Shown: piece by piece, positions 8,996-32,197 of the stretch
Layout of the letters: each line of letters starts with the position of its first letter
Position numbering within the stretch: the first letter of the stretch is position 1
Notes under the pieces: model-generated
The model's database searches: none
The model's input: only the letters and a program-made list of their open reading frames with translations
Told to the model about the DNA's origin: nothing
Assembly: GCA_902762495.1 (NCBI GenBank)
Contig: CACWOL010000006.1
Coordinates: forward strand, 3,771 to 67,770
DNA length: 64,000 bases
Reading direction: 5' to 3'
From: an uncultured bacterium
GTDB taxonomy: Bacteria > Verrucomicrobiota > Lentisphaeria > Victivallales > UBA1829
Program-made: the position numbers and the translations under genes

Positions 8996-9104
8996 GTCGC
9001 AATACTTCTTTCGGGCGGGTTCCGCCGTTCCGTTGATGGTTCAGATGGTTGACGCCCGGTTTCTTGGGGGAACAGAATGTCCGGCGTCAATCCTTTTAGA
9101 CACG

Positions 9105-10490
9105 CTATTTCGCGGTTTGTTCCATCACGGCATCCCCCGGTGTCGCAAATTTCCGGCACAGGACCTTGAACTGGTCGCCGCGGTCTTTATAATCGCGGAA
9201 CATGTCCATGCTGGCTGTCGCGGGCGACAGCAGGACCACATCGCCGGCCTTCGCGGCGGCAACGGATTTTTCGACCGCTTCGGGGAATGTCGCGCACATG
9301 GAAAAAGGAATAGAGTTCTTTTCGAGATACGCGGCGATCTTCTGTCCGCACGAACCGAAGACGACGGCATGTTTGAGGTGTTTCAGACTCGGCGCGAGTT
9401 CTTCGAAATCCATGTCCTTGTCCAGTCCGCCGAGTAGGATGACCACGTTGTGTTCGCCTCCGACCGAAGCCAGCGCTGCGTTCACGGCATGCGGATTGGT
9501 CGCCTTCGAATCATTGATGTACTGCACGCCTTTTGCGGTCAGGAAGCGTTCCAGTCTATGCGGGCCGGACTCGAATTTCACGAGGGCATCGATCACGGAC
9601 GGATCGAACACGGCGTTTTCACCCTTTACAGAAGCAAGTAGCGCGAGCGCGGCGAGCGCGTTCTCCAAATTATGAATACCTTTCAGCGCGAGTTTTTCAA
9701 CTGGGACTATGGTGCGTCCGCGAAAAGAAAGCATGCCGTCCCGCACCGTGAAATCGGCAGGCAAATTCGCCGAGAACGTAAAAAGCTTCTGTTCGGGGGC
9801 GGCGGATCGGAAACGGTTGAGGATGAGCGAGTTCAATGCGCAGACGGCGGCGGGGTCGCCGAGCAGTTTGAATTTGGCGGCGGCGTACGCCTCCATGCTG
9901 CCGTGACGGTCGATATGGTCGGACGCCAGGTTCAGGACCGCCGCGGCAGCCGGATGCGGCACGGGCATGATCTCGAGCTGGAACGAACTGATCTCGACGA
10001 TGGGGAGATCGAGCTTGCCGTCGAGGCAGTCGATCGCGGCATCGCTCATGGCATATCCGTTATTGCCGCAGGCGCATGCCCGGACTCCGGCGGCGCGGAA
10101 AAGCTCCGCGGTCAGCTCGGTCGTGGTTGTCTTGCCGTTGGTCCCGGTGATGCCGACGAACGGTTTCCCGCAGGACTCGAGCGCGAACTCAAGTTCGCCG
10201 ACGAGACGGCCGGAGACTTCCGCGAGTTTCGCCCGGACGGGGTTCCCGGCGCGGAATCCGGGGCTCAATACTGTGCGTTCGAAGCGGGGAAGTGCATCTT
10301 GCGCATGGAATCCGAAGAAGACGGCTTCGGGCTGTTTCGGGAGGGATGCGGCGAACGTCCGCAGGGAATCGTTGTCCTGTTCGTCGAGCAGCGCGAACGG
10401 GATGCCGAGGCGGGCGGCGAGTCTGGCGGCGGCGCGGCCGCTGACGCCGCATCCGGCGATGAGCGTCATGCCGCAGGGTTCATTGGTCAT
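9105..10490 (-). CDS. murD: UDP-N-acetylmuramoyl-L-alanine--D-glutamate ligase
   Basis: GITGTNGKTTT, EISSFQLE, DHIDRH, NDSKATN, LSPATASMDMFRDYKDRG; start overlaps the upstream stop (ATGA). Confidence 0.92.
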   Translation of the reverse strand: MTNEPCGMTLIAGCGVSGRAAARLAARLGIPFALLDEQDNDSLRTFAASLPKQPEAVFFGFHAQDALPRFERTVLSPGFRAGNPVRAKLAEVSGRLVGELEFALESCGKPFVGITGTNGKTTTTELTAELFRAAGVRACACGNNGYAMSDAAIDCLDGKLDLPIVEISSFQLEIMPVPHPAAAAVLNLASDHIDRHGSMEAYAAAKFKLLGDPAAVCALNSLILNRFRSAAPEQKLFTFSANLPADFTVRDGMLSFRGRTIVPVEKLALKGIHNLENALAALALLASVKGENAVFDPSVIDALVKFESGPHRLERFLTAKGVQYINDSKATNPHAVNAALASVGGEHNVVILLGGLDKDMDFEELAPSLKHLKHAVVFGSCGQKIAAYLEKNSIPFSMCATFPEAVEKSVAAAKAGDVVLLSPATASMDMFRDYKDRGDQFKVLCRKFATPGDAVMEQTAK

Positions 10491-12704: not shown

Positions 12705-15700
12705 ATGAAAGACGACAAAGACAATCAGAACATGGAATTCACGGAGGCGAAGGACCAGGCGTCCTTTGCTCCGCTCAGTATTACCGTTTCAGGAGAAAAA
12801 GGAAATGACCCGTCCCAGGACGATTCCTCCGGGGACCGCATCATTGATGCGCCCGCCCTCATTCTGGGCGGCATCGTCGTGTTTCCGCACGCGCTCACGC
12901 CGCTTGTCCTGAACGATCCCGGCATGATCTCGATGATGGACGCCGCCTCGTCCGGCGACCGCATGATCGCGCTGTTCCCGGAGATCCCGGACGACGAATC
13001 CATGCGCGGCCTGATCAAGGGCAAGGCGTTTGATCCGAATACGAGCTCGTTCCTGCTCAACAAGCGCAGGATCGCGTCCGTCGGCGCGCTCGCCCGTATC
13101 GTGAAGACCCTGAAATTCCCGGACGGCACCGTCCGCGTGCTTGTGCGCGGCATCGCGCGCTGCCGTTTCATGACGGTCGTGCCGGGCAAGCCGTACATGG
13201 TCATGAAGGTGCACCGGCTTTCCGATACCCCGGACACGTCGATGGAGACCGCGGCGATGGTCCGCAACGCGACCAAGCAGTTCCAGGAGGTCATCTCGTT
13301 CGCGCCGAATTTCCCGGAGGAACTGAAGATCGCCGTGCTGAACATGACGGACAATTCCCGCATCGCGGACGTGATCGCCGACACGCTCAATATCTCCTTC
13401 GCGGAAAAAGTCGTCCTGCTCACCGAACTGAAACTCCAGGAACGTCTGCATTTCCTGACGATCCTGCTCAACCGCGAGCTCGAGGTCCTGCGCCTCGGCT
13501 CCGAGATCCAGCGGCAGGTCCACGACGCCATGTCGAAGCAGCAGCGCGAGTTCTTCCTGCGCGAACAGCTCAAGCAGATACGCGAGGAGCTCGGCGAGGA
13601 CAACCGCAACCCGGACGTGGTCGCGATCTCGGAACGCATCGAAAAGGCGCATCTCCCGGAAGCCCCGTACAAGGTCGTGACCAAGGAGCTCGAACGACTC
13701 AACATGGTCCCGCCGTCCTCGCCGGAGTACAACATCTCCTACACCTACATCGATTGGCTGCTCAGCGTGCCGTGGACGCAGGCGACCGAGGAGCGCGCCG
13801 ACGTGCAGGTCGCCGCCTCCGTGCTCGACGCCGACCATTACGGTCTGAAGGACGTGAAGGAGCGCATCCTCGAATTCCTCGCCGTCCACCAGCTCAAGAA
13901 GAACAGCAAGTCCCCGATCATCTGCTTCATCGGGCCGCCCGGCGTCGGCAAGACCTCGCTCGGCCGCTCCATCGCCGTCTCCCTCAACCGCAAGTTCGTC
14001 CGAATGTCGCTCGGCGGCATCCGCGACGAGGCGGAAATACGCGGCCACCGCCGCACGTACATCGGCGCGCTCCCCGGACGCATCATTCAGGGCATGAAAC
14101 GCGCCGGAACGGTCAATCCGGTGTTCATGCTGGACGAGCTGGACAAGCTCGGCAGCGACTACAAGGGCGATCCCGCATCCGCGCTGCTCGAAGTGCTCGA
14201 CCCGGAGCAGAACAAGGCGTTCAACGACCATTATCTCGAGGTAGACTACGACCTCAGCAAGGTCATGTTCATCGCGACCGCGAACATGCTGGAGACCATC
14301 CCTCGTCCGCTGCTCGACCGCATGGAGATCATCCGCCTGCCCGGTTACACCGCGCTCGAAAAGGAGCAGATCGCGAAGCGCTACCTGATCCCGCGCCAGA
14401 TGGTGGAAAACGGCCTCGACAATTCGTTTGTGCGCTTCAAGCACAGCGCCGCGTTCGAGATCATCGAGCATTACACCATGGAGTCCGGCGTCCGCAGCCT
14501 GGAACGCACGATCGCTTCGGTCTGCCGCAAGCTCGTCCGCAGGTTCGTCGAGAAGAACGGCGGTCAGCCGCCGGAGAAACCGGTCGTCGTGGACGACGCG
14601 CTGGTCCGCGAACTGCTCGGCCCGCGCAAGTTCACCAGCGACGAGAGCGAGAACATCCCGCGCGTCGGCGTCGTGACCGGCATGGCATGGACCAGCTACG
14701 GCGGCACTACGCTTGAGGTCGAGGCCGCCAAGATGCCAGGCCGCGGCGAACTGAAGCTCACCGGCTCGCTCGGCGACGTCATGAAGGAAAGCGCGCTCGC
14801 GGCGTTCAGCTACGTCCGCGGTCACGCCAAGGCGCTCGGCATCAACCAGAAGATTTTCAAGGAAAACGATTTCCATATCCATGTGCCGGACGGCGCCACG
14901 CCGAAGGACGGTCCGTCCGCGGGCGTTACGCTCGCCACCGCCATCGTCTCGCTCCTCACCGGCAAGCCCGTGCGTCCGCGCCTCTCCATGACCGGCGAGA
15001 TTACCCTCAGCGGCAAGGTCACGCCCATCGGCGGCGTCCGCGAGAAGGTGATCGCGGCGCTCCGGGCGGGGATCCGCGACGTCGTGATGCCCGCCGACAA
15101 CGAGAAGGACATGGAAGACGTCCCGCAGGAAGTCCGCAGCAGGATCACGTTCCACTTCGTCCGCACCATCGACGAGGTGCTGAAGATCGCGATGCCGAAG
15201 AACGTGAAGCCGTACGTCCCGAAGCGCGCCGAGAAGGTCAGGGACGAGTTCTACGAGTACGACGATTATCTGTTCCAGAAGGTCGAACCCGAGGACAAGA
15301 AGCCGGAACAGAAAGCGGATTCCAAGTCCGAGGTCAAAGCGGATAATAAACCGGCCGCGCCGGAGGCGGAGAAGCCCGCTGTAGAGAAACCTGTCGAGGA
15401 AAAACCCGCCGCCAAGCCTGCGGAACCCGTAAAGCCTGTTCAATCCGAGGCGAAACCGGAATCTGCGGCGAAACCGGAAGAAAAACCGTCCGCGCCGGAA
15501 GCGAAGAAGCCGGAGCCCGCGCCCGCCGAAGAAAAGAAGCCGGAACCGCCGAAGCCGGAACATCATTCCGCCTCGCAGTTCGAGTTCAGGATGCCGACGC
15601 TGGTCGTGAATTACGGGAAAAAACCGAACGCCTCGTTCACGGTCGGCCAGGCCCCGCTGAAAGCGCCCGAACAGCACCCCCTGCCGGAGCCGCTGAAACC

Positions 15701-18015: not shown

Positions 18016-18546
18016 ATGCCCGTTATCCTCACCACTCTTTACGACGCGCAGACGATCCGCCGCCGCGTCGAGGAACTCGCCGCCGACATCTCCCGCGCCT
18101 ACGCCGGGCAGGAACTCACCGCTGTCATCGTGATGAACGGCGGATTCTTCTTCGCCGCAGACCTCCTGCGCCATGTCGATCTGCCCGTGCGCGTGGATTC
18201 CCTCCCCGCCGGCTCCTACGTGCACCATGCTTCGACCGGACAGCTCACGATGCGCGGCCGCCTGAAACTCGACGTGAAGGACCGCCATGTCCTCCTGATC
18301 GACGACATCCTCGACACCGGGTTTACGCTCGCCGAACTGCAGAAAATGATCCTGGCGGACGGCGCCGCCTCCTGCCGCACCTGCGTTCTGTTCGACAAAG
18401 CCATTCCGCCCGAAATGAAAAAAGCGAAGCCCGACTGGTTTGGATTCCACGCCCCCGCGGAGTACCTCGTCGGCTGCGGCATGGACTCCGACGAGCTCTA
18501 CCGCAACCTCCCCGACATCTGCATCCTCCGCGAAAGCGAACCCTGA
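18016..18546 (+). CDS. hpt: Hypoxanthine phosphoribosyltransferase
   Basis: PRPP-binding VLLIDDILDTGFTL; VGCGMDSDELYRNLP. Confidence 0.85.
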   Translation: MPVILTTLYDAQTIRRRVEELAADISRAYAGQELTAVIVMNGGFFFAADLLRHVDLPVRVDSLPAGSYVHHASTGQLTMRGRLKLDVKDRHVLLIDDILDTGFTLAELQKMILADGAASCRTCVLFDKAIPPEMKKAKPDWFGFHAPAEYLVGCGMDSDELYRNLPDICILRESEP

Positions 18547-18579
18547 TCCCGCCCCCGCCTCAATCCCCCGCGCACGGGC

Positions 18580-18668
18580 AAAAAAAAAAAGACGGCTGAA
18601 TTGAAGCCGTCAAATGGTTTTCCCGTGGGAATGAACCATCATATCCTTTACCAGGACTTGTAGAGTAC
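18580..18668 (-). ncRNA. tracrRNA
   Basis: Minus-strand ACUCUACAAGUCCUGGU (18666-18650) pairs at all 17 positions with the repeat 5' end GCUGGGGCUUGUAGAGU (4 G-U wobbles that work only in this orientation); then stem AUGGUU..AACCAU, terminator stem GACGGCU/AGCCGUC and a U-tract. Confidence 0.87.
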
Positions 18669-18672
18669 CAAT

Positions 18673-18701
18673 AATCTACCATGCCCGGCAGGAAATGTCA
18701 A
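18673..18701 (-). promoter_or_regulatory. sigma70 promoter of the tracrRNA
   Basis: TTGACA-17nt-TAGATT on the minus strand; predicted start only a few nt before the anti-repeat. Confidence 0.75.
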
Positions 18702-18790: not shown

Positions 18791-21700
18791 ATGCCGTACA
18801 CGACACTGGGACTGGATTTAGGAGTCGCCTCCATCGGCTGGGCGCTGATCTCCGAAGACGGAGACAGGGAATTCCACCTGAAGGCATGGGGGTCCCGTAT
18901 TTTCGAGCAGGGACTTGACAGCGGAAGCGGTCTGGACGGGATTTCCGCGGGAAAAGGGACCTCGCGCGCGACCGAGCGCCGCCAGAAAAGGGCGCTGCGC
19001 ACACAGTACAAGCGCCGTCGCGAACGCAAAAATGAACTGAAGCACATCCTGACGGAAAACGGGATGCTCCCCGAACCGTTCACGCCTGAGTTCTTTGTCG
19101 AGCTCGACCGCAAACTTGTGCAGACGCTTCCCGAGGCGGAACGCGAACACGCCGCCCACATCGCGCCGTATCTCTACCGGAAACTCGCGCTTGACCGTCC
19201 CCTCACGAAAGAGGAATTCGGACGCGCGATCTACCATCTGGCGCAGCGCCGCGGCTACCGGAGCAACCGCAAGCTGGACCTGACGGACAAGGACGTTGGC
19301 GTAGTGAAGGAACGCATCGCGGGACTGAAGTCCAAAATGGAGCAGGTGCACGCCCGAACGCTCGCCGAGTATTTCTGTACGATCGATCCGAACAAGGAAC
19401 GTATCCGCGCACGTTACACGGATCGCGCCATGTACGAGGACGAATTCCGCAAGATATGCGAGGCGCAGCGCGCGATCGTCTCCCCCGAACTCGAAAAACA
19501 GCTTCACAAGGCGATATTCTTTCAGCGCAAACTCAAATCCTGCAAAGGGCTCGTCGGGAAATGCGAAATCTACCCGGAACTCCGCCGCTGCTCCATGGCG
19601 AAGGAGGAGGCGCAGCTTTTCCGCATTTACACGACCGTCTCCAACCTCCGCGTACAGAAAGGTGATACCGTCCGTCCACTCACGGATGAGGAACACGACA
19701 ACGCCGTCGCCTTCCTGAACGGCTATTCGGACGACATCAAGAAGGGCAAGGTTTCCCTTGCAACTCTCGGAAAAGTCATCGGGCTTGCCAAAGGTGAAAA
19801 GTTCACGCTCAGTGACGAAAGCAAGGAAATCCACGGAAACGAGCTCCACGCCGCGCTCGTCCGCGTCTTCGGCACGGAAAAGGCCGCCGCCATGAGCGCC
19901 ACAGAACAGGGCACTTTCTTCCACGACCTCAAATCCATTGAGAAGGACGCGATTCTGAAAAAACGCCTCTCCGGCTACTGGAAACTCGCTTCGCCCCAAG
20001 TCGAGGCCGCCATGACGGTTATGCCGCCGGAATCCTATTGCGCGTATTCGCTCCGGGCACTCAGAGAAATGCTCCCAAGTCTTGAATCGGGAGAGTCTCT
20101 CCCGACGATCAAAAAACTCCTTTATCCGAAACAGGTCGGAGCGGAACATGATTTCCTTCCAGTTTTCGACAGCAAAGAATGCAACATTGACATCAGGAAT
20201 CCCCTCGTTCACCGTGTGATCACGGAACTGCGCGCGGTCGTGAACGCGATCATCGCCCGCTACGGCAAGCCGAACGAAATCCATATTGAACTCGCCCGTG
20301 ATCTGAAGACATCCAACAAGGAGAAAGAAAAAATCACCAGTCAGAACAGAAAGCGGGAAAAGGAACGTCATGAAATCGCCGAACGCATCCTCGCGGAAGC
20401 CGGCATCGAAAAACCCTCCCGAAACGACATCCTGAAGGTCATGCTCGCCGATGAATGTAATTATGTCTGTCCATATACGGGAAAAGACCTACGGCCTTTG
20501 AAAAGAATCCTGTACGGGAAAGACATCCACATCGAACACATCATCCCGCTGTCGCGCTCCGGCGACGATTCGTTCCGCAACAAGACCCTTTGTGACGCCT
20601 CCGCGAACAGCGCCAAGAACAACCGTACGCCGTTCGAGGCATACTCCGGCGAACAGTACAGGCAGATTCTCGCACGCGTCGCGCAGTTCAAAGGGCATTA
20701 TGCCGCGGACAAGCTCAAGCTTTTCAAAATGGAAGAGCTGGAAAACGATTTTATCGAGCGCAACCTCAACGACACGCGCTATGCCAGCCGCATCGCCATG
20801 CAGTATCTCGGATTGCTCTACGGCGGCATAAATGACAAAAACCACAAGCAACGTATTTTCGCGACCAACGGACGCACCACTGCCCTGATCCGCAGCGGCT
20901 GGGGTGGAAACGACCTGCTCGGCGAGGGCGAGAAAGTCCGCACGGACCACCGCCACCATGCCATCGACGCCCTCACCATCGCGCTCACCACGCCGGGCAT
21001 GGTGCAGAAACTCGCGTCCATGCCGTCCGAACAGCGCCGCAAGCTCAACGATGCTGGAATTCCACAAATTGATCCTAACTTAAGGAACGAAGCAAAACAG
21101 GCTTTGAACTCCGCCGCCGTCTCCCATCACGTCCGCAACAGACTCCGCGGCGAATTGCATAAGGATACTTTATACAGCAAAGATTACGGGGGAACGGAGC
21201 GCCATGTCCGCGTGAGTCTGGATGCCATGGAGCCGGGCGATGTCGCGAAGATCGTCGACCCCGTCATTCGTGCGCTCGTACTGGAAAAGCTTGGTAGATC
21301 CAACCCGGAAGACGTTACCAAAACTGATTTCAAGCTTTTCTGTGATCCCGCCAATCTTCCCATTCTACGCGATACCAAGGGGAATCCGGTCAACGTGATA
21401 AAAAAGGTGCGCGTCAGGCAGAACCTCAAGACCGTCACGGTTGGATCTGGCGACGGTATCCGAGAGGTTAAGACGGGATCCAACTACGTCCTACCCATTT
21501 TCGCGAAACTGAACGAGAAGGGCGAGGAAACCAAGTGGGAAGGTAAGATCGTCACGCTGCTCGACGCCATCCAGCGGCAGAAACACGGTCTGCCGATCTT
21601 CGAGAAGGACAACCCCGGATACAAGTTCAAATTCTCTCTTAAAAAAGACGACATCGTCAAATGGACCAAAGACGGAAAAGAATATCTATGCGTCGTGAGG

Positions 21701-21871
21701 GGGATCTCCCTCCCGCAATTCTATCTGGTTCCGGTGGAAGAAGCGAGAAGAAAAGGAGATATTCAGAAAGGGGGATGCTGGTTCCCGCTGACCATTTCCC
21801 GTGCATTTAACGGCAAGCTGCAAAAGTACCGCATGAACATTTTCGGGGAACTGCGCGATGCCAACGACTGA
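18791..21871 (+). CDS. cas9: Type II-C Cas9, 1026 aa, catalytic motifs intact
   Basis: RuvC-I LGLDLGVASIGWA; Arg-rich bridge helix; RuvC-II IHIELAR; HNH IEHIIPLSRSGDDSFRNK..N..K; RuvC-III HRHHAIDA. Confidence 0.97.
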   Translation: MPYTTLGLDLGVASIGWALISEDGDREFHLKAWGSRIFEQGLDSGSGLDGISAGKGTSRATERRQKRALRTQYKRRRERKNELKHILTENGMLPEPFTPEFFVELDRKLVQTLPEAEREHAAHIAPYLYRKLALDRPLTKEEFGRAIYHLAQRRGYRSNRKLDLTDKDVGVVKERIAGLKSKMEQVHARTLAEYFCTIDPNKERIRARYTDRAMYEDEFRKICEAQRAIVSPELEKQLHKAIFFQRKLKSCKGLVGKCEIYPELRRCSMAKEEAQLFRIYTTVSNLRVQKGDTVRPLTDEEHDNAVAFLNGYSDDIKKGKVSLATLGKVIGLAKGEKFTLSDESKEIHGNELHAALVRVFGTEKAAAMSATEQGTFFHDLKSIEKDAILKKRLSGYWKLASPQVEAAMTVMPPESYCAYSLRALREMLPSLESGESLPTIKKLLYPKQVGAEHDFLPVFDSKECNIDIRNPLVHRVITELRAVVNAIIARYGKPNEIHIELARDLKTSNKEKEKITSQNRKREKERHEIAERILAEAGIEKPSRNDILKVMLADECNYVCPYTGKDLRPLKRILYGKDIHIEHIIPLSRSGDDSFRNKTLCDASANSAKNNRTPFEAYSGEQYRQILARVAQFKGHYAADKLKLFKMEELENDFIERNLNDTRYASRIAMQYLGLLYGGINDKNHKQRIFATNGRTTALIRSGWGGNDLLGEGEKVRTDHRHHAIDALTIALTTPGMVQKLASMPSEQRRKLNDAGIPQIDPNLRNEAKQALNSAAVSHHVRNRLRGELHKDTLYSKDYGGTERHVRVSLDAMEPGDVAKIVDPVIRALVLEKLGRSNPEDVTKTDFKLFCDPANLPILRDTKGNPVNVIKKVRVRQNLKTVTVGSGDGIREVKTGSNYVLPIFAKLNEKGEETKWEGKIVTLLDAIQRQKHGLPIFEKDNPGYKFKFSLKKDDIVKWTKDGKEYLCVVRGISLPQFYLVPVEEARRKGDIQKGGCWFPLTISRAFNGKLQKYRMNIFGELRDAND

Positions 21872-21887
21872 CACATTGTCAAGACTG

Positions 21888-21935
21888 CAAAAAAACAAAA
21901 AGCATCGCATTCCATTTCTGGATAACGATGCTTTT
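21888..21935 (-). terminator. Intrinsic terminator closing the minus-strand CRISPR transcript, convergent with cas9
   Basis: 10-bp stem AAAAGCATCG/CGATGCTTTT followed on the minus strand by TGTTTTTTT. Confidence 0.7.
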
Positions 21936-21961
21936 CTGTGGTACACTTGTTATTTGAAATC

Positions 21962-22321
21962 AGATCAGGGTACCATTTGAACTCTACAAGCCCCAGCACA
22001 GTGTTGCACTGCCGCCATTCCGACGCCAATCAAGTGTACCGTTTGAACTCTACAAGCCCCAGCAAGGTCTCGAATGGGACGGCAAATAGAAGTAATCAGG
22101 TGTACCGTTTAAACTCTACAAGCCCCAGCTGATTCTCATGGCGAACCCTGACGCAACCGAATCAAGTGTACCGTTTGAACTCTACAAGCCCCAGCCAGCA
22201 AACCATCTGCCTTGATTGCGGCGCGAATCAAGTGTGCCGTTTGAACTCTACAAGCCCCAGCATGTATTCCGCCTCCAGTGGATCGGACGGGAATCAAGTG
22301 TACCGTTTGAACTCTACAAGC
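21962..22321 (-). CRISPR. CRISPR array: 6 repeats (36 nt, minus-strand consensus GCTGGGGCTTGTAGAGTTCAAACGGTACACTTGATT) and 5 spacers of 30 nt
   Basis: Repeats at 21962-21997 (degenerate), 22028-22063, 22094-22129, 22160-22195, 22226-22261 and 22292-22321 (30 nt, truncated); orientation set by tracr pairing. Confidence 0.97.
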
Positions 22322-22406
22322 ATGTGGAGTTCAGGTTGTCAAAGAACACGGAATCAATATAGCACGGAAACCGGGAAAAACAAGCGGAAACCGGAAAACG
22401 AGGCAC

Positions 22407-22448
22407 AAAAAAGGCGGGCTCCTGCCCAACCAAGAAACAGGAGTCCGC
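22407..22448 (-). terminator. Intrinsic terminator, probably the original groEL operon terminator displaced by the insertion
   Basis: GCGGACTCCTG/CAGGAGCCCGC stem plus TTTTTT on the minus strand, ~120 nt beyond the att copy of the groEL 3' end. Confidence 0.6.
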
Positions 22449-22565
22449 TCGTTTGTTTTGCGTTTTGGGGTCGCTTCGCTCCTCGGAAAACTCGCTTACG
22501 CTCGATAGATTACTTACCGCGAGGCGCGAAATCCGAGGGGGAAATACCCCGGGCAGTAAGCTGAA

Positions 22566-22577
22566 TTACATCATGCC
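22566..22577 (+). repeat. att direct repeat TTACATCATGCC (left junction)
   Basis: Identical to 30554-30565, the last codons of groEL (GGC ATG ATG TAA). Confidence 0.85.
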
Positions 22578-22699
22578 TGTAAATTTTTATGCTCAAAAGC
22601 AAGAAAATTTTCTGTTTTGTGCTTGTAATTTGCCTTTTTGATGCTATTTTATACCAAACACGGGCAAATAAACACAAACAAGCAAAGGATCGGTAAAAA

Positions 22700-24115
22700 A
22701 TGGCACGAACGACACGCGGACGGCTGTATAAACGAGGGAAGAAGGGAAACTATTATCTCCAGTATTACCAAAACGGCATAGAGCACCGCGAAGCCTTGCG
22801 AGACGAACACGGCGAACCGATAACCGGGGCCGATGCCGCAAGGGCCGCCGCAGATCGCATTCTTGCCCCGCTACGCTTTAAGGATGACGCGCAGAAGCTC
22901 CGAACGCTTGTAAGTGAGCTTTCCTCTTTGGAAAAGAAAGCGGAAGATGCCACCGCCGCACTGAAAAACCAGGCCGCGACACTTGAAAACGGCTGGGAAT
23001 GCTTTTTGAAATGTCCGACTTGCCCGGACACTTACACGCGATACGGGCAGAGCGAACCGCCGCACGACAGCCGCGCTTATATATCCAGGGGGTACTATCG
23101 GAATTTTGTTTCCTGGACGCAGAAGCATCACCCGGAAATCATACTTTTAAGCGAAGTATCCGAAGGTATAGCGCAAGAGTACATTAACACGCTGAAAGAA
23201 AAGTATGGATCAAACGGGCGGCCAGTTAATGAAAGATTGCGAATACTGAAACAGATGTATTTTTCCATGCTGGAAGATGAAAAAATAGTTATGCCGCGCG
23301 ACCCGTTCAAAAGGATAAGAAGGCTAAAAACATTTACAACCACGAAAGACGCGCTCACGATAGAGGAAGTCCAGCGGCTTGTAAGCGCCGCCAAAGATGC
23401 TGAAATGCGGAGACTTGTTTTAATCGGTTTTTGTACGGGCTTGCGGCTGGGGGATTGCTGTACGCTCCAATGGGGAGAAGTGGATCTGATAAGACGTGTT
23501 ATTTCACGGATTCCGAATAAAATGTGCGACCGGGTACAGAACCCGGAGAATGTACGAGTAAAAGTAGGGATTCCCGCCCTTTTGATGAACGAGCTTTTAG
23601 CAATTCCAGCAGAACAGCGAACCGGGCCAGTATTGCCGCATTTATGCGAACAGTACAACGAACGCCACACGGGGCTTTATAAGCAGATCAGAGCGCTTTT
23701 CAAAAGCGCAAAGATTGTTACAATCAAGCCAGGGAGTAAAGACGCGCAACATCCGCACGGGATTATCATAAAGGGCTTTCATTCGCTCCGGCATACATTC
23801 GTTAGCCTAAGCGCCGAAGCCGGGGCCCCACAACACGTTATACAGCGGATTGTCGGGCATAGTTCGCCCTTGATGACGATGCATTACACGCACCTGGGAA
23901 ACGCCGATCTATTGCGAAGCGCCGACAGCCTGCCAGCCTTGCCCCTGGAGACCGCGCCAGGAAAGGAGACCGCCGGGGCCGCCGCCGTGATCGATGTTTC
24001 GCCCCTGGAGACCGACGATCAGACGGAACGCGATCGGGCAGAACTCCGGGCGCTTGCCGACACCCTGCCGCCGGATCAGATCCGGGAAATACTGAACCAT
24101 TACCGGGGAGCTTGA
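22700..24115 (+). CDS. int: Tyrosine recombinase/integrase
   Basis: TGLRLGDC (R), FHSLRH (HxxR), VGH, MTMHY (Y); N-terminal arm-binding-like beta motif. Confidence 0.93.
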   Translation: MARTTRGRLYKRGKKGNYYLQYYQNGIEHREALRDEHGEPITGADAARAAADRILAPLRFKDDAQKLRTLVSELSSLEKKAEDATAALKNQAATLENGWECFLKCPTCPDTYTRYGQSEPPHDSRAYISRGYYRNFVSWTQKHHPEIILLSEVSEGIAQEYINTLKEKYGSNGRPVNERLRILKQMYFSMLEDEKIVMPRDPFKRIRRLKTFTTTKDALTIEEVQRLVSAAKDAEMRRLVLIGFCTGLRLGDCCTLQWGEVDLIRRVISRIPNKMCDRVQNPENVRVKVGIPALLMNELLAIPAEQRTGPVLPHLCEQYNERHTGLYKQIRALFKSAKIVTIKPGSKDAQHPHGIIIKGFHSLRHTFVSLSAEAGAPQHVIQRIVGHSSPLMTMHYTHLGNADLLRSADSLPALPLETAPGKETAGAAAVIDVSPLETDDQTERDRAELRALADTLPPDQIREILNHYRGA

Positions 24116-24118
24116 AGC

Positions 24119-24961
24119 ATGACAGATAAACAGAAAAAAATAGTCGATGATTATATATCGAACGTGAAAAGCCGTTATTCGGATATTTTTGATTTTGTGT
24201 TATTCCTTCCTTGCTCTACCCCTTCTTTTTGGGGGAAAGAGCTTATAGATCGGCTATCAGATTCAGACCGGGAAAAGTTGGATAGTTTTCTATCAGAAGC
24301 GCGCCCCATTCGCGAGGACATTAGCTTTTGTCAAGAAAAAATACAAGCGCGGATGAATTGTTGTATAGACCATGTAGAAAGAATTGCAGCCGGAACAGAA
24401 GCGCCAAGAGACGCTATGCAGCTTTACTTGACATTCTACGGCCTTTTTGATGAAAGCATACGTTTTTCCGCGCTTGCGATGCAGTCTATAATGCTTTCCG
24501 AAAGGATCGCGCGCCTGCTGGAGAAGTATAGCGACGAAGAAACGAACACCGCCGCACGTCAGCACCTGGACGAGGTAAAAAAGATACTTGACGTGATCCA
24601 CGAGGAACACGCCGCCACGCGGGAAATGATAGGAGATCAGCACCGCCACGCCTGGGAACGCTGGGCCACTGTTCCCGAATGTGTACGCGCTATTGTGGAT
24701 ATGGCAAAGACCGAAAAAGCCGACGGGAAAAATATTTCTCTACCAGGGAATGAAAACACGTTACGGATTAAAATTTCAAACTGGTTAAATGAGCACGGAA
24801 AGCGCCGGGAAGGAACGCAGAAAAAACCGTATTTTCAGACCGCAGATATAGCAGATGCCGCAGGAGTTTTTTATAAAGAATTTGAGCCCGTTCAATATCT
24901 CCGGGAGTTTGAAAAAATCGGCATTCCCGCCGAACGCATACAGAAACCAAAAAAGAAATAA
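24119..24961 (+). CDS. Hypothetical protein of the element, possibly with a C-terminal DNA-binding domain
   Basis: 280-aa ORF 3 nt after int; low GC; no recognisable family. Confidence 0.6.
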   Translation: MTDKQKKIVDDYISNVKSRYSDIFDFVLFLPCSTPSFWGKELIDRLSDSDREKLDSFLSEARPIREDISFCQEKIQARMNCCIDHVERIAAGTEAPRDAMQLYLTFYGLFDESIRFSALAMQSIMLSERIARLLEKYSDEETNTAARQHLDEVKKILDVIHEEHAATREMIGDQHRHAWERWATVPECVRAIVDMAKTEKADGKNISLPGNENTLRIKISNWLNEHGKRREGTQKKPYFQTADIADAAGVFYKEFEPVQYLREFEKIGIPAERIQKPKKK

Positions 24962-24973
24962 ACTCGAAAAGGG

Positions 24974-25079
24974 TTTTAGAGGAGTTTTAGAGGAATTATA
25001 AAAAATTGTGCTGTTTTTTTGAGCTGGAGACGCACCACCACGCGCACCGTCTCCGGCTTTTTTTAGAGGATTTTAGAGG
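24974..25079 (+). promoter_or_regulatory. Four TTTTAGAGG boxes in two tandem pairs flanking a GGAGACG/CGTCTCC hairpin; likely operator array
   Basis: Copies at 24974, 24985, 25061 and 25071, upstream of the HTH/primase operon. Confidence 0.55.
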
Positions 25080-25130
25080 GGGAATAGTACATTTTCGGCA
25101 GTTCCAACACGCAACAAAAAACGCAAGGAG

Positions 25131-25469
25131 ATGCCAAAAATGGAAATCAGAACCAAGATCACGCCGCAAGTGATCGCCGCCGCCACTGGATTACTGCAAC
25201 CCTTCATCCCCGATCTTTCCCCGCAGGGGCTTGTTTCAGCCTTGAAGGAGTACAACGCCAGCAAGCCGAAGCCGGAGCCGGATAATCGGCCCATGACCCG
25301 CCAAGAGGCCGCCGAGCTGCTGAAGTGCTCCAGAAACACGATCAGCCACTATCTTTCAATCGGCAAGCTCCGCAAGATCACGCTTACAGCAAGATCATGC
25401 CGGATCGATCCCGCGAGTGTTCGCGCCCTGCTTTCCGGGGAGACCGCCAGCGCCAGCCAGGAAGGATAA
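25131..25469 (+). CDS. Helix-turn-helix (excisionase/AlpA-like) DNA-binding protein
   Basis: MTRQEAAELLKCSRNTISHYLSIGKL..RID matches the MerR-type HTH_17 pattern. Confidence 0.78.
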   Translation: MPKMEIRTKITPQVIAAATGLLQPFIPDLSPQGLVSALKEYNASKPKPEPDNRPMTRQEAAELLKCSRNTISHYLSIGKLRKITLTARSCRIDPASVRALLSGETASASQEG

Positions 25470-25476
25470 GCCGAGA

Positions 25477-27639
25477 ATGCACACGCACGACGATATAGCC
25501 CAATATCTGAACGCTCTTTCCGCCGACATTGATCGCGCCGCCTGGATTGACATTATGAGCGCTTTTAAATCAGCCGGGGGAGATTACGAAACCTTCCGCG
25601 CCTGGAGCGCCACCGCGCCGCACCGATTCGACGAGAACGATTGTAACAGCGCCTGGAACAGCATCACGCCGTCCGGGAATCCCGAAGGGGCCGGCGGGAT
25701 GCTCCGTAAAAGGGCGAAAGAAGCCGGGGCAACATTCGACGATCTGCCGCGCCGAGCCAGGAAAGCACCGACGGCCCCGCCGCCACCGCCGCCCATTCCT
25801 GGAGCGATCCCACCGCCGCCACCGCCGCCGTCAGCGCCAGGAGACACCGGCCTGCAGGGGTATAAACCGGGCTTTCTGCCGGGGGCCGCGCTCCGCCCTT
25901 CCCCTGGAGCGAACACCGCGCCGAAAAGATTGATCGAACAGAGTGCCGAACACCGTGCCCAGGCTTTGCCATACCTTGAAAAGCGAGGCATTACCGCCGC
26001 CACCGCCGAACGTTTCAAGATAGGCTATGCCGAACATTTCGAGCTTGCCGGAACCCACGAACCGCGCATTATTATCCCTTACCCTGGAGCGGAACCGCCG
26101 TATTTTGTAGCCCGCAGACTTTCAGCGGCCGGAGACAAGGACGGGAAAAAGTATCTGTATCCGGCAGGGGTAAAAAAGCCGCTGTTCAATTTGCCCGCCC
26201 TCACGAGCGGCGAAAAGGCCGTTTTTATAACAGAGGGGCAGATCGACGCAATGACGCTTGAACAGCAGGGCGGGGCCGCCGTCGCAAGCAACGAAGAAAG
26301 CCAAATTATAAACGCGATCAGAACCGAGAAGGATTTAACGGCACAGATTTTTATAATCGTTCCCGACGATGACCGAACCGGAAAAAATAAGGCTTTCGCA
26401 AAAATCGAAGCGCTGAAAAAGGCCGGATTTCAAGCGTATATTTACCGCATTCCCGAAGGGTATCACGATGTAAACGATTTTTTCTTGAAGGCTGGGGCCG
26501 ATGCGTTTGCCGCCTGGATCGCGTCAGCGAAATGCCCTCTTTTACAATACTGCGTCGATTTTGCCGACGTGCAGGATGATCCACCGGAATTGCCGCCGCT
26601 TTTGATCCATGATATTCTGCGATGCGGCGAAAAGATGCTTATTTCGGGGCCGTCGAAGGCCGGAAAGACCTGGTTTTTAATTCAAATGGCGCTTGACATT
26701 TCCACCGGGCACGCCTGGTATGGTTATCAGTGCGAGAAAGCCCCGATTTTATATCTAAATCTCGAACTGAAAACGAACGCTTTCAGAAAACGGATTATAG
26801 ATGTATCTCAACGGCTGGGCTTGCGCGTCGATTATAAAATCTTCCACGTCGTGAACCTTTGCGACCTCGAAAAGCAGTATAAAGACGATCTCGGACGATT
26901 GATCTTTTCAATAATTGAGCTTGCGAGAGCGATTAAGGCCAGGGCCATTTTCATTGATCCCATTTACAAATGCGGCCTTGAAGATGAGAACAGCGCCAAA
27001 GACGTTTCGAAATTCTGCCGCCTGCTGGATGAAATGACGGACGAAACCGGGGCCGCCGTGATTTACTGCCACCATTTTTCGAAGGGCTTGCAATACGAAA
27101 AAAACGCGATCGATCGCGCCAGCGGATCGGGAGTATTCGCCAGGGATGCGGATGCGATTGTAACGCTTTCAGAGCTTGAAGCCCCGGACGGCTACCGGAT
27201 CGAAGCCACCTTGCGAGGATTCAAAAGGCCGGGGCCGCTTTCGATCCGGTTTGAACATCCTTTGCATGTTCTCGCGCCGGAGCTGAACGACTGCCCGCTG
27301 AAAGGATCGAAGCCGCCGCGCCAGGGGAAGGGAACCGGGCGCGTAGATTATGCCGTTCTTGATGATGCGTCGAAAAAAGTAATCCTCGATGAAGCCGCGA
27401 AAATCTGCCCATGCAAAAAGACGGCTTTTGTTGATGCCATAGCAGACCGAATATCCCAGGGGAAAAACCGCGCCGGAGAGCTGGTAACGCAGATGATCAC
27501 CGCCGGGGTGCTTATCTGCACGAGAGACGCAAAGAACAACAACACAAAAATGATCTCGATCCCGCCGCCGGAGCCCGACGAGGCCGACGAGGAACCCGAC
27601 GAAGAACCCGACGACTTGATCGATTATGACAGCGTTTGA
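25477..27639 (+). CDS. Primase-helicase fusion (PriCT-2-like, DnaG-type TOPRIM, AAA_25/RepA-type helicase)
   Basis: DRAAWIDIMSAF..W (PriCT-2); FITEGQIDAM, PDDDRTG, DVNDF (TOPRIM); GPSKAGKT Walker A, IFIDP, HHFSKG. Confidence 0.85.
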   Translation: MHTHDDIAQYLNALSADIDRAAWIDIMSAFKSAGGDYETFRAWSATAPHRFDENDCNSAWNSITPSGNPEGAGGMLRKRAKEAGATFDDLPRRARKAPTAPPPPPPIPGAIPPPPPPPSAPGDTGLQGYKPGFLPGAALRPSPGANTAPKRLIEQSAEHRAQALPYLEKRGITAATAERFKIGYAEHFELAGTHEPRIIIPYPGAEPPYFVARRLSAAGDKDGKKYLYPAGVKKPLFNLPALTSGEKAVFITEGQIDAMTLEQQGGAAVASNEESQIINAIRTEKDLTAQIFIIVPDDDRTGKNKAFAKIEALKKAGFQAYIYRIPEGYHDVNDFFLKAGADAFAAWIASAKCPLLQYCVDFADVQDDPPELPPLLIHDILRCGEKMLISGPSKAGKTWFLIQMALDISTGHAWYGYQCEKAPILYLNLELKTNAFRKRIIDVSQRLGLRVDYKIFHVVNLCDLEKQYKDDLGRLIFSIIELARAIKARAIFIDPIYKCGLEDENSAKDVSKFCRLLDEMTDETGAAVIYCHHFSKGLQYEKNAIDRASGSGVFARDADAIVTLSELEAPDGYRIEATLRGFKRPGPLSIRFEHPLHVLAPELNDCPLKGSKPPRQGKGTGRVDYAVLDDASKKVILDEAAKICPCKKTAFVDAIADRISQGKNRAGELVTQMITAGVLICTRDAKNNNTKMISIPPPEPDEADEEPDEEPDDLIDYDSV

Positions 27640-27760
27640 ACTGGTTTTTTACTTGTTTGAACTGGTTTTTTAGGTTTTTTACGCTAAAATCTAACAAATC
27701 AGAGGGGGCGGTTTTTTAGAGTTTTATTAGAAAACCCCATAGGGGTTTCTAAAAAACCGG
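27634..27760. other. Putative replication origin (iterons plus palindrome)
   Basis: GTTTGAACTGGTTTTTTA twice (27634, 27655), more GGTTTTTTA copies, a near-palindrome TAGAAAACCCC..GGGGTTTCTA and an inverted TAAAAAACC, directly downstream of the primase-helicase. Confidence 0.5.
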
Positions 27761-28047
27761 AAAACCAGCCCACTGTTAGCGCATGAAAGAACATCACGCC
27801 ACCATGAAACAGCCACCAACACACAGCCAGTTGGAAACGCCGATCCGCCACGCCGCCGCCTTCCTGGAGCGACAGAAGGACAAAGCGCCGACGCAGGCCA
27901 GCTGCCACGATCTTCCGCGCTGGATCACACGACAGCCGCCGACGGCCTGCCGTCCTGGATCATTCCGATCAGCCAACCCGCCGCGCCGCCGATAACGTGA
28001 CGAACGCGACAAACACAAACCACAAACCCGAAGGAGTAGCCCAAACC

Positions 28048-28290
28048 ATGAACCCCGAAACCCCAGAATGCCGTTTTTGTAAATGGTTCAGAACCGAAGA
28101 AGATGTATCAATGCCATTTTCGTTCATTGGCCCGCATGGATACTACAAGCAGAGAATTGTATCTTTTTGCTGTTTTAATCCGCCCGATGGAAACGCGCCG
28201 TATCCGTGGAACTTTGGCGAAACCGTGCCGGATGCAATGTGTTCCAAATGGGAGCAGGCAGAACAGCCGGCAGACGATTCCGACCAGTAA
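28048..28290 (+). CDS. Small Cys-rich phage-type hypothetical protein
   Basis: AAGGAG RBS; CRFCKWF...CCFNPP...CSKWE pattern. Confidence 0.6.
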   Translation: MNPETPECRFCKWFRTEEDVSMPFSFIGPHGYYKQRIVSFCCFNPPDGNAPYPWNFGETVPDAMCSKWEQAEQPADDSDQ

Positions 28291-28544
28291 TCCGAACGGC
28301 CCCGATCTTCAAAAGGTACTACGGAAAACCCACCCCCGACCGACTACCACCGGGGAAGTAGTCGAAACACTCGGCACACTTTCTTTCTTTGCCATGTTCG
28401 CGCGTCGGCCGTTTTTTTTTGATGCTTGCCGCCGCCGGATGCCGCCGAGAATCGCCGCCGGATGCCGCCGCTTGCCCCTGGAGCGACGAAAGGGCCGCGC
28501 CCCTGCGTCGATGCGGATTTATCGGAAAACCCCGTAAAAACGGC

Positions 28545-28573
28545 TTGAAAACGAAAAGGAGACGTGATATATT
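28545..28573 (+). promoter_or_regulatory. sigma70 promoter
   Basis: TTGAAA-17nt-TATATT with an extended -10 TG. Confidence 0.7.
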
Positions 28574-28579
28574 ATCGTC

Positions 28580-28760
28580 GCTCCGGCTGGAACCGGGGCA
28601 AGGGCTATATCCGAGGCGGGGCCAGCACCCCCGCCGAAAATCGGCACGACCGCCGAGGCCCCACGGATTTTTTTCTTTTTATGGGCTTGCCGCTCTGCGT
28701 GAAGTGAGGCCGCTAACCTCGCAAGGTGTTCCAGCACCGACCGCCGAGCGGCTTTTTGTG
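28580..28760 (+). ncRNA. Structured leader or antisense-type regulatory RNA (C4/CI-like)
   Basis: Hairpins CCGG-CTGGAA-CCGG and GGTG-TTCCAG-CACC with complementary loops; GCCG-AAAAT-CGGC hairpin; terminator-like GCCGAGCGGC-TTTTT before the ORF. Confidence 0.5.
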
Positions 28761-28779
28761 CCCGGAAAGGTGTTTCACC

Positions 28780-29394
28780 ATGAAACAGACCACGAACAGC
28801 AAAACCAGCACCAGGAAAGCAACCAGGGCCGCCGCCGGGATGCCAGCGCCGCCGGACGGATCAGCCGCCGCGCTCGATGCCGCCGCCCTTCCTGGAGCGC
28901 CGGACGCGATCCGCGCCGCCGTCGATGCGCTGAAGGCCGCCAGGCCGGATGATATTGCCGACAACCTCGAAAAAGAAGAGTTATGCGAAGATGATTATCT
29001 TGATCTATGCAAAGAGGCAAAAGGCTTTTATCCGCGCAATCCTGCCGAAGTCCTGCACGATTTCAAGGTGCAAAACTGGTATGAGTTTTACAAAACCGCC
29101 GAGCTTGCTTTTTCCGGGTACGACGTGAAGGAGATAGCCGAGGACGCAGATCGGAGCGCAACCGAAAACGCGATCCGAACGATTGTTTACAGATTCCTGC
29201 AACTGAACCATAACGACCGCGCCGCGCTCGATCTATTCGCCGCCGCCGCTCGTTTCAGCGAGGCAGGCGAAAAAGAGATCGATGAGCTTTTGAACAGCAC
29301 CCGCGACGATATCAGCGAGAGGTTCCGCAAGAACTTTTCCGAGGCCCTGCCGCCGGACGTGCTCGAACGGATCATAAAGGAGATTCACCGCTAA
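28780..29394 (+). CDS. Hypothetical protein downstream of the structured leader
   Basis: 204-aa ORF preceded by GAAAGG; acidic, helical C-terminal half. Confidence 0.65.
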   Translation: MKQTTNSKTSTRKATRAAAGMPAPPDGSAAALDAAALPGAPDAIRAAVDALKAARPDDIADNLEKEELCEDDYLDLCKEAKGFYPRNPAEVLHDFKVQNWYEFYKTAELAFSGYDVKEIAEDADRSATENAIRTIVYRFLQLNHNDRAALDLFAAAARFSEAGEKEIDELLNSTRDDISERFRKNFSEALPPDVLERIIKEIHR

Positions 29395-29557
29395 AAGATC
29401 CTCGATCAGACCGAGCCAGCCGGGGAGCCTTGCTTTTTTCTTGCCAGGATTGCCGCCGGATGCCGCCGCGCCTGCTGTTCCCTTCCTGGAGCGAGAAGCG
29501 CCAGCGACCAGCGCCGCCAGTGATCCCCGGCAGGCCGTCGAAACAGCATCCCCGGAC

Positions 29558-29586
29558 TTGCAAAAGCGGGAAAGACGTGATATAGT
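29558..29586 (+). promoter_or_regulatory. sigma70 promoter of the small membrane ORF
   Basis: TTGCAA-17nt-TATAGT with TG; shares AGACGTGATATA with the 28545 promoter. Confidence 0.7.
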
Positions 29587-29612
29587 TCTTCTGCAAACAT
29601 GAGGAAACCAGC

Positions 29613-29786
29613 ATGAATAACGACAGCCCGGCCCCTTTAATCCTCGGATCGATTACCGCCTTTATCCTTGCCATCTATTGCGGTTTTTGGTATGCCGCAA
29701 TCGTGCCGGGGCTTATTCTTTTCGGTTTTATCGTTCTGTATCTTCAAGACCGGGCAGAAAAGCAGGATAAAAAAGGCAAGAAATAG
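29613..29786 (+). CDS. 57-aa two-TM membrane protein (below the ORF-track length cutoff)
   Basis: MNNDSPAPLILGSITAFILAIYCGFWYAAIVPGLILFGFIVLYLQDRAEKQDKKGKK; GAGG RBS; own promoter. Confidence 0.65.
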   Translation: MNNDSPAPLILGSITAFILAIYCGFWYAAIVPGLILFGFIVLYLQDRAEKQDKKGKK

Positions 29787-29929
29787 CCCGAACGCGACCC
29801 GCCGCCGATGTTCCCGGCCTGGACGGACGCCGAACGGATGCCGCCGCCCGAAGCGAAGAAAAGAAAAAACGAGGCGGGAAGAAAGAAAATCAGCATAAAT
29901 AATTCATTTATAGCGAGTTATAAAACATA

Positions 29930-29957
29930 ACGTCGCATAATAGGCATTATGTTAAAT
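29930..29957 (+). other. dif-like XerC/XerD recombination site
   Basis: ACGTCGCATAA-TAGGCA-TTATGTTAAAT: XerD arm 11/11 and XerC arm 7/11 identical to E. coli dif, 6-bp spacer. Confidence 0.75.
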
Positions 29958-30102
29958 CGTTTGAGGTTAAATTGTAGCATTTTTTATGTGTAGCGCCACA
30001 TAACAAGCATAGAAATATAACACGAAAACGACTTGAAAAAACGGAAAACGGAGTTATATTATCATAGACCCGAAACCACCAACCCCGAAAGGATCCCGAT
30101 TC

Positions 30103-30363
30103 ATGGAAAGCCCTTATCCGACCCGAAAAGAAGAGGCTGAAGTATTCAAAGAGGCCGTAGAGCGCCTAAAGATCAAAGGCATAGACGCGCCGCGCTGGTT
30201 TGGAGTTGCCCGGCAGACCCTTGCCAGCTGGACGAGTGGACGCACGACGATCCCGCGAGAAGCTTTTATAATCCTGCTGGAAACGGATAATATCAACTAC
30301 CGCCGGACGCAAGAAAGATTCGATCAGATAGCCGCGACTGTTGAACGGCTGAAGAAACAATAA
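30103..30363 (+). CDS. Small XRE/Cro-like HTH protein
   Basis: APRWFGVARQTLASWTSGRTTIP HTH pattern; promoter TTGAAA-16nt-TATATT at 30033-30060; RBS AAAGGA. Confidence 0.65.
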   Translation: MESPYPTRKEEAEVFKEAVERLKIKGIDAPRWFGVARQTLASWTSGRTTIPREAFIILLETDNINYRRTQERFDQIAATVERLKKQ

Positions 30364-30406
30364 CCGCGACCGCGCCAGGGAACTGGATACCAAGTCCCAA
30401 AAAGGG

Positions 30407-30448
30407 AGCCGCCCCCGTTATGAAGATCACACGGGAGCGGCTTTTTTT
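30407..30448 (+). terminator. Intrinsic terminator at the right end of the element
   Basis: AGCCGC-CCCCGT/ACGGGA-GCGGCT stem plus T7. Confidence 0.6.
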
Positions 30449-30553
30449 CTTCTGTTCTGTATTGTGCGTATTATCTTCAGTACAAACAAGAAATAATACG
30501 CACAAGAAAAACAAGAAATAAGCTCAAAAGATAGGGCTTGAATAGGGCGCGTG

Positions 30554-32197
<1,644 letters not shown>

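Follow-up and report, generated by a model that had tools for sequence, protein, structure and literature searches.

The array and the trans-activating CRISPR RNA (tracrRNA) of the type II-C system of NmeCas9 are transcribed in the direction opposite to cas9. The system described here is a Cas9 locus with a short CRISPR array in a stretch of 64,000 nucleotides from an uncultured bacterium of the Victivallales (assembly GCA_902762495.1, contig CACWOL010000006.1, positions 3,771 to 67,770); this whole 64-kb stretch is called the window, and positions refer to it unless a related locus is named. It shares with the Nme system a Cas9 of similar size, the RuvC and HNH motifs and a tracrRNA upstream of cas9, and the relatives of the window locus, like Nme, show the gene order cas9-cas1-cas2-array without csn2 or cas4. 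In contrast to Nme, the window lacks cas1, cas2 and the leader, the C-terminal third of its Cas9, which is the part that interacts with the protospacer adjacent motif (PAM), does not align to NmeCas9, the predicted duplex between the CRISPR RNA (crRNA) and the tracrRNA is only about 21 bp long, and a candidate promoter lies in the far flank of the array, instead of or besides repeat-internal promoters.

Three other groups of described systems invite comparison. The type II-B locus of Francisella novicida GA99-3548 has lost cas1/cas2 and kept cas9 and its RNAs (PMC6199352). It differs from the window locus in subtype and in phylum, and nothing comparable to the regulation-linked scaRNA of Francisella was found in the window. 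Regarding polarity, PMC10309648 (citing Hoikkala 2021) reports the II-C arrays of Flavobacterium columnare and F. psychrophilum as transcribed toward their variable end. The polarity inferred for the window matches this, with a promoter at the old end and transcription toward the end at which spacers are added; unlike the window, the Flavobacterium loci keep cas1-cas2 and are proposed to use repeat-internal promoters. Finally, type II-C2 consists of phage-encoded Cas9 with an inactivated RuvC (PMC12669027). This type was ruled out, as the four RuvC catalytic residues are intact in the window and the locus is chromosomal, syntenic with that of an intact relative (L001) and located outside an adjacent 8-kb mobile element.

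Our analysis indicates that the locus in the window is probably a canonical type II-C CRISPR-Cas9 locus, belonging to a rumen Victivallales bacterium, from which the adaptation half was lost secondarily, leaving interference only. It is not a distinct type of system; it is a frozen derivative of a known kind, and nothing in it challenges the current understanding of type II systems.

The Cas9 locus, its intact relatives and the deletion junctions

The product of the 1026-codon open reading frame (ORF) matched the Pfam families RuvC_III, HNH_4 and Cas9_a, scored 619 bits against the NCBIfam equivalog TIGR01865 (cut-off 100) and was called Cas9 by the PADLOC models. In an alignment to NmeCas9 the RuvC catalytic residues D9, E500, H723 and D726 and the HNH residues H583 and N611 were all kept, and the protein shows the split RuvC with an inserted HNH of type II effectors. 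The best-matching solved structure was NmeCas9 (PDB 6JDQ and 8JA0; E of 1.6e-64 over residues 5-743) and the nearest solved structures were all II-C (Nme and other II-C entries), the subtype being provisionally placed by these nearest structures. The original prediction, which had proposed from the DNA letters a 1026-amino acid Cas9 with intact RuvC and HNH in a type II-C-like locus without cas1/cas2, agrees with these results. Its label of a compact Cas9 does not, given that 1026 residues are ordinary for II-C and the NmeCas9 chains have 1082.

Of the other features of II-C loci, the window has an adjacent array of 36-nt repeats and spacers of about 30 nt and a tracrRNA gene with an anti-repeat, predicted to form a duplex of about 21 bp; cas1 and cas2 are lacking. 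A tblastn search with the Cas1 and Cas2 of four relatives (40-100% range) found nothing in the 64 kb, which bears out the earlier statement that no adaptation genes lie on either side; the neighbours encode Lon, a phosphoribosyltransferase, an integrase, a primase-helicase and GroEL. Beyond the window, the search for adaptation genes covered the same metagenome, for contigs at least 80% similar to the cas1-cas2 of L001. Run X1, which was read whole and holds the window at 100%, had no such contig, while the window's own unitig extends over the 3' end of cas9 and the beginning of the array. A search of the genome for cas1/cas2 had been suggested with the original prediction, and its metagenome part could thus be carried out at this threshold, with a negative result.

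The comparison set consisted of twelve distinct Cas9 proteins of 70-85% identity, that of the window included. Nine of the twelve belong to canonical cas9-cas1-cas2 loci, L001 among them, and cas1-cas2 also accompany more distant relatives with Cas9 identities of 57%, 52% and 40%. Scanning the JGI metagenomes with the Cas9 brought up a single relative, of 36% identity. The order in intact relatives is cas9-cas1-cas2-leader-array; they hold cas9, cas1 and cas2 only, with neither csn2 nor cas4, and the Pfam and PADLOC annotation of the genes neighbouring the window locus contained no csn2 or cas4. The intact orthologous loci come from metagenome-assembled genomes of rumen Lentisphaeria/Victivallales (L001 RGIG3616, L014/L013 RGIG10120, L018, L021 and L025-L027) and share with the window a Cas9 of 77-85% identity, the 36-nt repeat, the tracrRNA and the far-end flank of the array. 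Where contigs of relatives extend into the array, so that repeats could be read, the 36-nt repeat was the same, with one base different in L019/L020. In L001 the chromosomal neighbours also match those of the window, from Lon through the phosphoribosyltransferase gene upstream and at groEL downstream. Unlike the window, the intact loci have cas1, cas2, a conserved leader of about 190 nt and 14-65 repeats. This recent origin by deletion from a canonical cas9-cas1-cas2 locus, still intact in close relatives, was overlooked in the original prediction, as were the tracrRNA gene with the minus-strand transcription of the crRNAs and the 8-kb mobile element past the array.

The gap of 90 nt between the cas9 stop (21871) and the first array unit (21962), reported before and found here as well, consists of 17 nt of the cas1 5' end followed by the post-cas2 terminator region. 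Its first part (21872-21888) aligns to the first 17-18 nt past the cas9 stop in cas1/2-positive relatives, and its second part (21889-21961) is homologous to the sequence directly past the cas2 stop in L001, L018, L019, L021 and L014. As these remnants at the junction show, the loss of cas1-cas2 is secondary. A first deletion took out cas1 and cas2, from 17 nt past the cas9 stop to just past the cas2 stop, probably via a 6-nt microhomology: the motif CGGAAA occurs in L001 and L025 both at +17 past the cas9 stop and just past the cas2 stop. This microhomology fits the junction of the window only, and not those of L003 and L004, two further loci without cas1-cas2.

In all intact loci a conserved stretch of about 190 nt, the leader, lies between cas2 and the first repeat. 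The window keeps the first 70-75 nt of this stretch, while the 105-110 nt abutting the repeat are gone. The first array unit might be taken for a mutated repeat, which was ruled out because the unit is a fusion of leader and repeat; in crRNA sense it retains repeat nt 1-26, and its nt 1-21, those that pair with the tracrRNA, are identical to the consensus. From the loss of the leader and this fusion it follows that a second deletion took an unknown number of newer repeat-spacer units; it removed the leader together with the newer part of the array and ended inside a repeat.

The array (21962-22321) has a 66-nt period, formed by a 36-nt repeat and a 30-nt spacer, with six units (starting at 21962, 22028, 22094, 22160, 22226 and 22292) and five spacers; in shuffled sequence the repeat had 0 matches. 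Two lines of evidence mark the cas9-distal end of the family's arrays as the old one, since L013 and L018 have in common only their two cas9-distal spacers and the point mutations of the repeats in intact arrays are confined to that end. New spacers would thus enter beside cas2 in intact loci, and the five spacers of the window can be read as the remnant of a trailer. A partial terminal repeat like that of the window is present in L001, L003, L004, L013 and L018, which indicates that the 30/36 terminal repeat is ancestral. The repeat point changes that had been noted, two in the copy at 22094 and one in that at 22226, are real, but their interpretation as decay following the loss was rejected because active arrays of cas1/2-positive relatives show the same at their old end. 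The variants in the full repeats are C19>U, which is compatible with the tracrRNA as a wobble pair, and changes at positions 26 and 31, outside the duplex; apart from C19>U, all repeat changes lie at positions 23-35. With six repeats the window has the shortest array of all, next to 12 and 15-16 repeats in the other loci without cas1-cas2 and 14, 25-27, 38, at least 42 and 65 repeats in those with cas1-cas2.

Two observations concern the arrays of relatives. The same spacer, shifted by 1 nt, is present in L004 (13184-13213) and in L021 (6796-6825), which are different lineages, so its protospacer was apparently acquired twice; this spacer had no match in IMG/VR. Past the last repeat of the L021 contig (8147-8212), GTTGGGACTTGTAGAG is a repeat-like fragment in inverted orientation, which could stem from a fold-back in the assembly or be what remains of an inverted array.

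Three of the twelve loci lack cas1-cas2: the window, L003 and L004/L005. The nearest Cas9 of each belongs to a cas1/2-positive locus (window and L001, 85%; L003 and L018, 88%; L004 and L018, 87%), and L003 shares synteny with the intact L018 upstream of and across cas9, until 7 nt past the cas9 stop. The junctions differ: in L004 the cas9 stop abuts a perfect repeat (13081-13082), and in L003 (13081-13123) 7 nt of cas1, about 12 unassigned nt and the last 23 nt of a repeat succeed one another. As the junctions differ and the loci without cas1/2 are interleaved with intact ones by Cas9 identity, the three deletions arose independently of one another. In all three the conserved leader at the first repeat is deleted, the left breakpoints lie 0 (L004), 7 (L003) and 17 nt (window, 21871-21888) past the cas9 stop, and no cas1 fragment survives past these breakpoints. 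Choosing loci by a full-length Cas9 would explain the spared cas9 and not the absence of a cas1 fragment. These recurrent, tightly placed deletions are the sole unusual point of the locus. They allow the tentative and rather doubtful proposal that rumen Victivallales have discarded cas1, cas2 and the leader repeatedly and with precision while Cas9, the tracrRNA and the fixed guides stayed under purifying selection. If true, there would be selection against spacer acquisition, for instance through a cost of autoimmunity, with a continued benefit from fixed guides, or alternatively a mechanistic hot spot at the cas9-cas1 boundary.

The tracrRNA, promoters and crRNA transcription

The minus-strand gene upstream of cas9 was identified as that of the tracrRNA because of its pairing with the repeat, its homologues opposite to cas9 and its covarying fold. 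In it, an anti-repeat (about 18651-18669) precedes two stem-loops and an intrinsic terminator, made of a stem (18591-18611) and a run of 11 T. The 5' end of the RNA is complementary to nt 1-21 of the minus-sense repeat, and RNAcofold gave -50.6 kcal/mol with this repeat versus -38.0 kcal/mol for the plus-sense control, which formed no intermolecular helix with the tracrRNA. We found 29 distinct homologues in Lentisphaerae loci, every one on the strand opposite to cas9, and the RNAalifold consensus of 23 aligned homologues had 19 pairs, nine of them with compensatory changes. No family in Rfam matched the tracrRNA of the window. The gene has a strong sigma-70-type promoter, which scored 10/12 in the promoter scan and is kept in 8/8 aligned relatives. 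A plus-strand tracrRNA between cas9 and the array, at GGTACACTTG (21940-21949), was considered and rejected: it is a 12-nt match in the conserved post-cas2 region, it has no downstream structure and its pairing is accounted for by the upstream minus-strand gene.

Because the tracrRNA pairs with the minus-sense repeat, the crRNAs are expected to be read from the minus strand, toward cas9. A promoter-like element directed into the array from its far flank shows the architecture TTGyaT-16-TGCTAnATT, which is retained in L001, L003 and L004 despite diverged surroundings; we infer from its likeness to the consensus that it could be the promoter of a minus-strand pre-crRNA. At the other end of the array, the hairpin at 21902-21931 has T-runs on both strands and is likely a bidirectional terminator that ends both the cas9 mRNA and the pre-crRNA. 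In crRNA sense, a repeat comes after each of the five spacers, and nucleotides 1-21 of all these repeats are able to pair with the tracrRNA; the sole change within these nucleotides, C19>U, leaves a G-U pair. The coordinates are collected in Table 1.

Table 1. Parts of the Cas9 locus, with their positions in the window
Feature	Positions	Strand	Basis or description
tracrRNA gene, ~85-90 nt	18580-18669	-	Anti-repeat, promoter, terminator, homologues
tracrRNA promoter, sigma-70-type	18673-18701	-	TTGACA, 17 nt, TAGATT; TG ahead of the -10 box
cas9, type II-C-like, 1026 aa	18791-21871	+	ORF, domain matches, catalytic residues
cas1 5'-end remnant, 17 nt	21872-21888	+	Left breakpoint of the cas1-cas2 deletion
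Post-cas2 remnant	21889-21961	.	A-run, hairpin 21902-21931, ~25 nt of proximal leader
Junction unit	21962-21997	-	10 nt derived from the leader (21962-21971) fused to repeat positions 11-36 (21972-21997)
Five 30-nt spacers and four full 36-nt repeats (22028, 22094, 22160, 22226)	21998-22291	-	crRNA sense minus
Terminal repeat, 30/36 consensus positions	22292-22321	-	Old end, distal to cas9
Promoter-like element into the array	22356-22383	-	TTGTTT, 16 nt, TGcTATATT (extended -10); read from the sequence

These parts can be assembled into a working scheme. After the two deletions the locus retains a nuclease-intact cas9, a divergent tracrRNA with its own promoter and terminator, an array promoter at the far end and five spacers. 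The far-end promoter would drive a minus-strand pre-crRNA toward cas9, the pre-crRNA would pair with the tracrRNA, the host RNase III would process the duplex, and Cas9 would presumably cut DNA with a match to any of the five old spacers, beside a PAM. With no spacers added, immunity would be frozen and would grow outdated. At least two other close lineages (L003 and L004) underwent a like loss independently.

State of the locus and alternative explanations

The interference parts (cas9, the tracrRNA and the crRNA units) look functional. Pairwise dN/dS, the ratio of nonsynonymous to synonymous substitution rates, was 0.11-0.20 for cas9 irrespective of cas1/2 status, with 0.20 between the window and L001. 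Relaxed selection on the Cas9 of the window was considered and ruled out, since its synonymous changes rise proportionally and the ratio of nonsynonymous to synonymous changes shows no difference between its branch and that of L001 (Fisher p = 0.25). The nucleotide identity of the window to L001 is 85% in cas9, 91% upstream and 95% downstream, suggesting that cas9 evolves faster than its neighbours or has recombined.

A number of points speak against a working, interference-only derivative. Compared with L001, the window has a Cas9 branch of about double the length (47 nonsynonymous and 82 synonymous changes versus 16 and 42), and Tajima-type tests gave p values from 0.03 down to 4e-6 with close outgroups. 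The deletion is undated, and if it is very recent, the intact cas9 and the low dN/dS say little on later selection. Expression and activity of the interference module are predicted from sequence alone, and the candidate array promoter falls below the 4-of-6 rule of the scan tool for the -35 hexamer. Protospacers were found for 0/5 spacers in the window, the fetched loci, IMG/VR and cultured phages. A cas1-cas2 pair of another CRISPR type, or below 80% nucleotide identity, may exist elsewhere in the genome, including its unassembled part.

The spacer searches, which the original prediction had suggested, returned no target at any of their levels. The five spacers had no match in the window, the adjacent element or any of the fetched related loci, their exact 20-nt seeds were absent from IMG/VR, and a BLAST of the array versus cultured phages gave one chance-level match only (E = 0.3). 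With no targets found, a PAM could not be inferred from them.

The strongest rival is that the locus is a non-functional relic heading for loss, whose intact look is owed to the recency of the deletion. We consider this unlikely. It fits the shortest array of the family, composed of old-end spacers only, and the lack of spacer targets; integration of the 8-kb mobile element, about 250 bp past the array, went unhindered, and a recent change of state would be beyond the resolution of dN/dS. However, cas9 has an intact ORF with every catalytic residue in place, the promoter, structure and terminator of the tracrRNA are intact too, and the pairing segment is kept in 5/5 crRNA units. Moreover, L003 and L004, with the same loss, retain a full-length cas9 and 12-16 perfect repeats.

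According to a second alternative, spacers would still be gained through Cas1-Cas2 encoded elsewhere in the genome. Adaptation in trans has been shown for some type VI and type III loci, PMC8092290 documents it for other CRISPR types, and L003 and L004 have 12-16 perfect repeats and unique spacers in the absence of cas1-cas2. Yet recent independent losses, as the junctions show them, explain unique spacers without later acquisition, and all three loci have lost the leader at the first repeat. The metagenome of the window strain holds no contig similar to the cas1-cas2 of the relative at the threshold given above, and a Cas1-profile scan of the GTDB species representatives, which yielded 80 loci, found no II-C-type cas1 elsewhere in the genome assembly of L003. 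Since the leader is gone and no related cas1-cas2 was found, continued acquisition is unlikely, and this alternative is improbable. The array supplied in trans that the original prediction had envisaged is also at odds with the shortness of the array and its resemblance to an old trailer end.

It is just as improbable that Cas9 was repurposed for a non-defence role with fixed guides, such as gene regulation of the kind reported for the scaRNA/tracrRNA system in Francisella, another option of the original prediction. In its favor, cas9 and the tracrRNA were kept after the loss of adaptation in three lineages, and the cas1/cas2 loss of F. novicida GA99-3548 has been tied to a possible non-canonical function (PMC6199352). 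Against it, both nuclease sites are intact, the spacers match neither the window nor the fetched related loci, which speaks against fixed self-targets there, and the repeat-like sequences of the window are those of the array and of the tracrRNA anti-repeat only, with no extra small-RNA gene seen. Among the options first put forward, a frozen array is the best fit, as cas1, cas2 and the conserved leader are all deleted.

An assembly artefact, in which a collapsed repeat or a chimeric join would simulate both the missing cas1-cas2 and the short array, can practically be dismissed: short-read assemblies of metagenomes often break or collapse CRISPR arrays and the arrays of several relatives stop at contig ends, but the independently built Logan unitigs of run X1 (bovine gut) span 21247-22057 and 22292-23000, the cas9-array junction included, at 100% identity, the unitig of the perfect repeat has a depth of 24.6 versus 6.6-10 in the flanks (about 3x), which argues that there is no long hidden array, the same Cas9 protein and neighbourhood are seen on three contigs, and remnants of cas1 and of the post-cas2 region are present at the junction.

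Loss of the adaptation half from a canonical locus therefore stays our preferred reading. The window would then be a clean natural example of a CRISPR-Cas9 system turned interference-only by small deletions, with an intact orthologous locus for comparison. If the recurrence holds in more genomes, it would offer a tractable case in which to ask whether the loss of adaptation is selected or merely tolerated, and would also show for how long a frozen set of guides persists. The Cas9 family itself (about 1020 residues, with a short tracrRNA of about 85 nt and a repeat:anti-repeat duplex of 21 bp) is one of many uncharacterised II-C ortholog groups.

The adjacent mobile element and other features of the window

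An integrative element of 8 kb (22578-30565), absent from the syntenic L001, lies just past the array. It is flanked by a 12-bp direct repeat, TTACATCATGCC, at 22566-22577 and 30554-30565, which corresponds to the end of the groEL coding sequence, stop codon included (minus strand, ...GGMGGMM*). Its genes encode a tyrosine integrase (22700-24115), an excisionase/AlpA-like protein with a helix-turn-helix (25131-25469) and a PriCT-Toprim-AAA_25 primase-helicase (25417-27639), together with small ORFs of no assigned function, a layout reminiscent of phage satellites or small mobilisable islands. None of the spacers in all the fetched arrays targets it. We also considered that the element had inserted into a repeat, cutting off the remainder of the array and the cas genes. 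This was ruled out by the true junctions at 22566 and 30554, in the groEL 3' end, and by the 30/36 terminal repeat and the flank of about 140 nt that are common to the window and L001; the partial terminal repeats in all relatives argue further against it.

Two short intergenic stretches beside the locus, 22382-22538 and 18457-18613, had a contig depth of 41-176 versus 5-8 for cas9 in the gut metagenomes X2-X4, which suggests a multi-copy small element. Part of the first of them (22467-22530) is an inverted copy of L001 9560-9630. In L001 itself, a 3.2-kb insert (6545-9717) is located between the phosphoribosyltransferase gene and the tracrRNA; it is bordered by a duplicated stretch of about 80 bp and contains a tandem repeat of about 77 nt in nine copies (8598-9259).

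Farther downstream, the region 56145-59425 contains a gene for a HipA-like kinase (56462-57718) with a small upstream ORF, then a 23-nt tandem repeat (57999-58084) and an AAA_14/DUF4143 ATPase gene (58154-59425) that matches the PADLOC candidate system PDC-S01; the GC content is lower here, and the genes possibly form a small islet for defence or of toxin-antitoxin type. A tandem duplication of 267 nt with 86% identity lies at 55227-55731, and an AT-rich repeat of 86 nt occurs twice, 7.6 kb apart, at 55956-56041 and 63596-63681.

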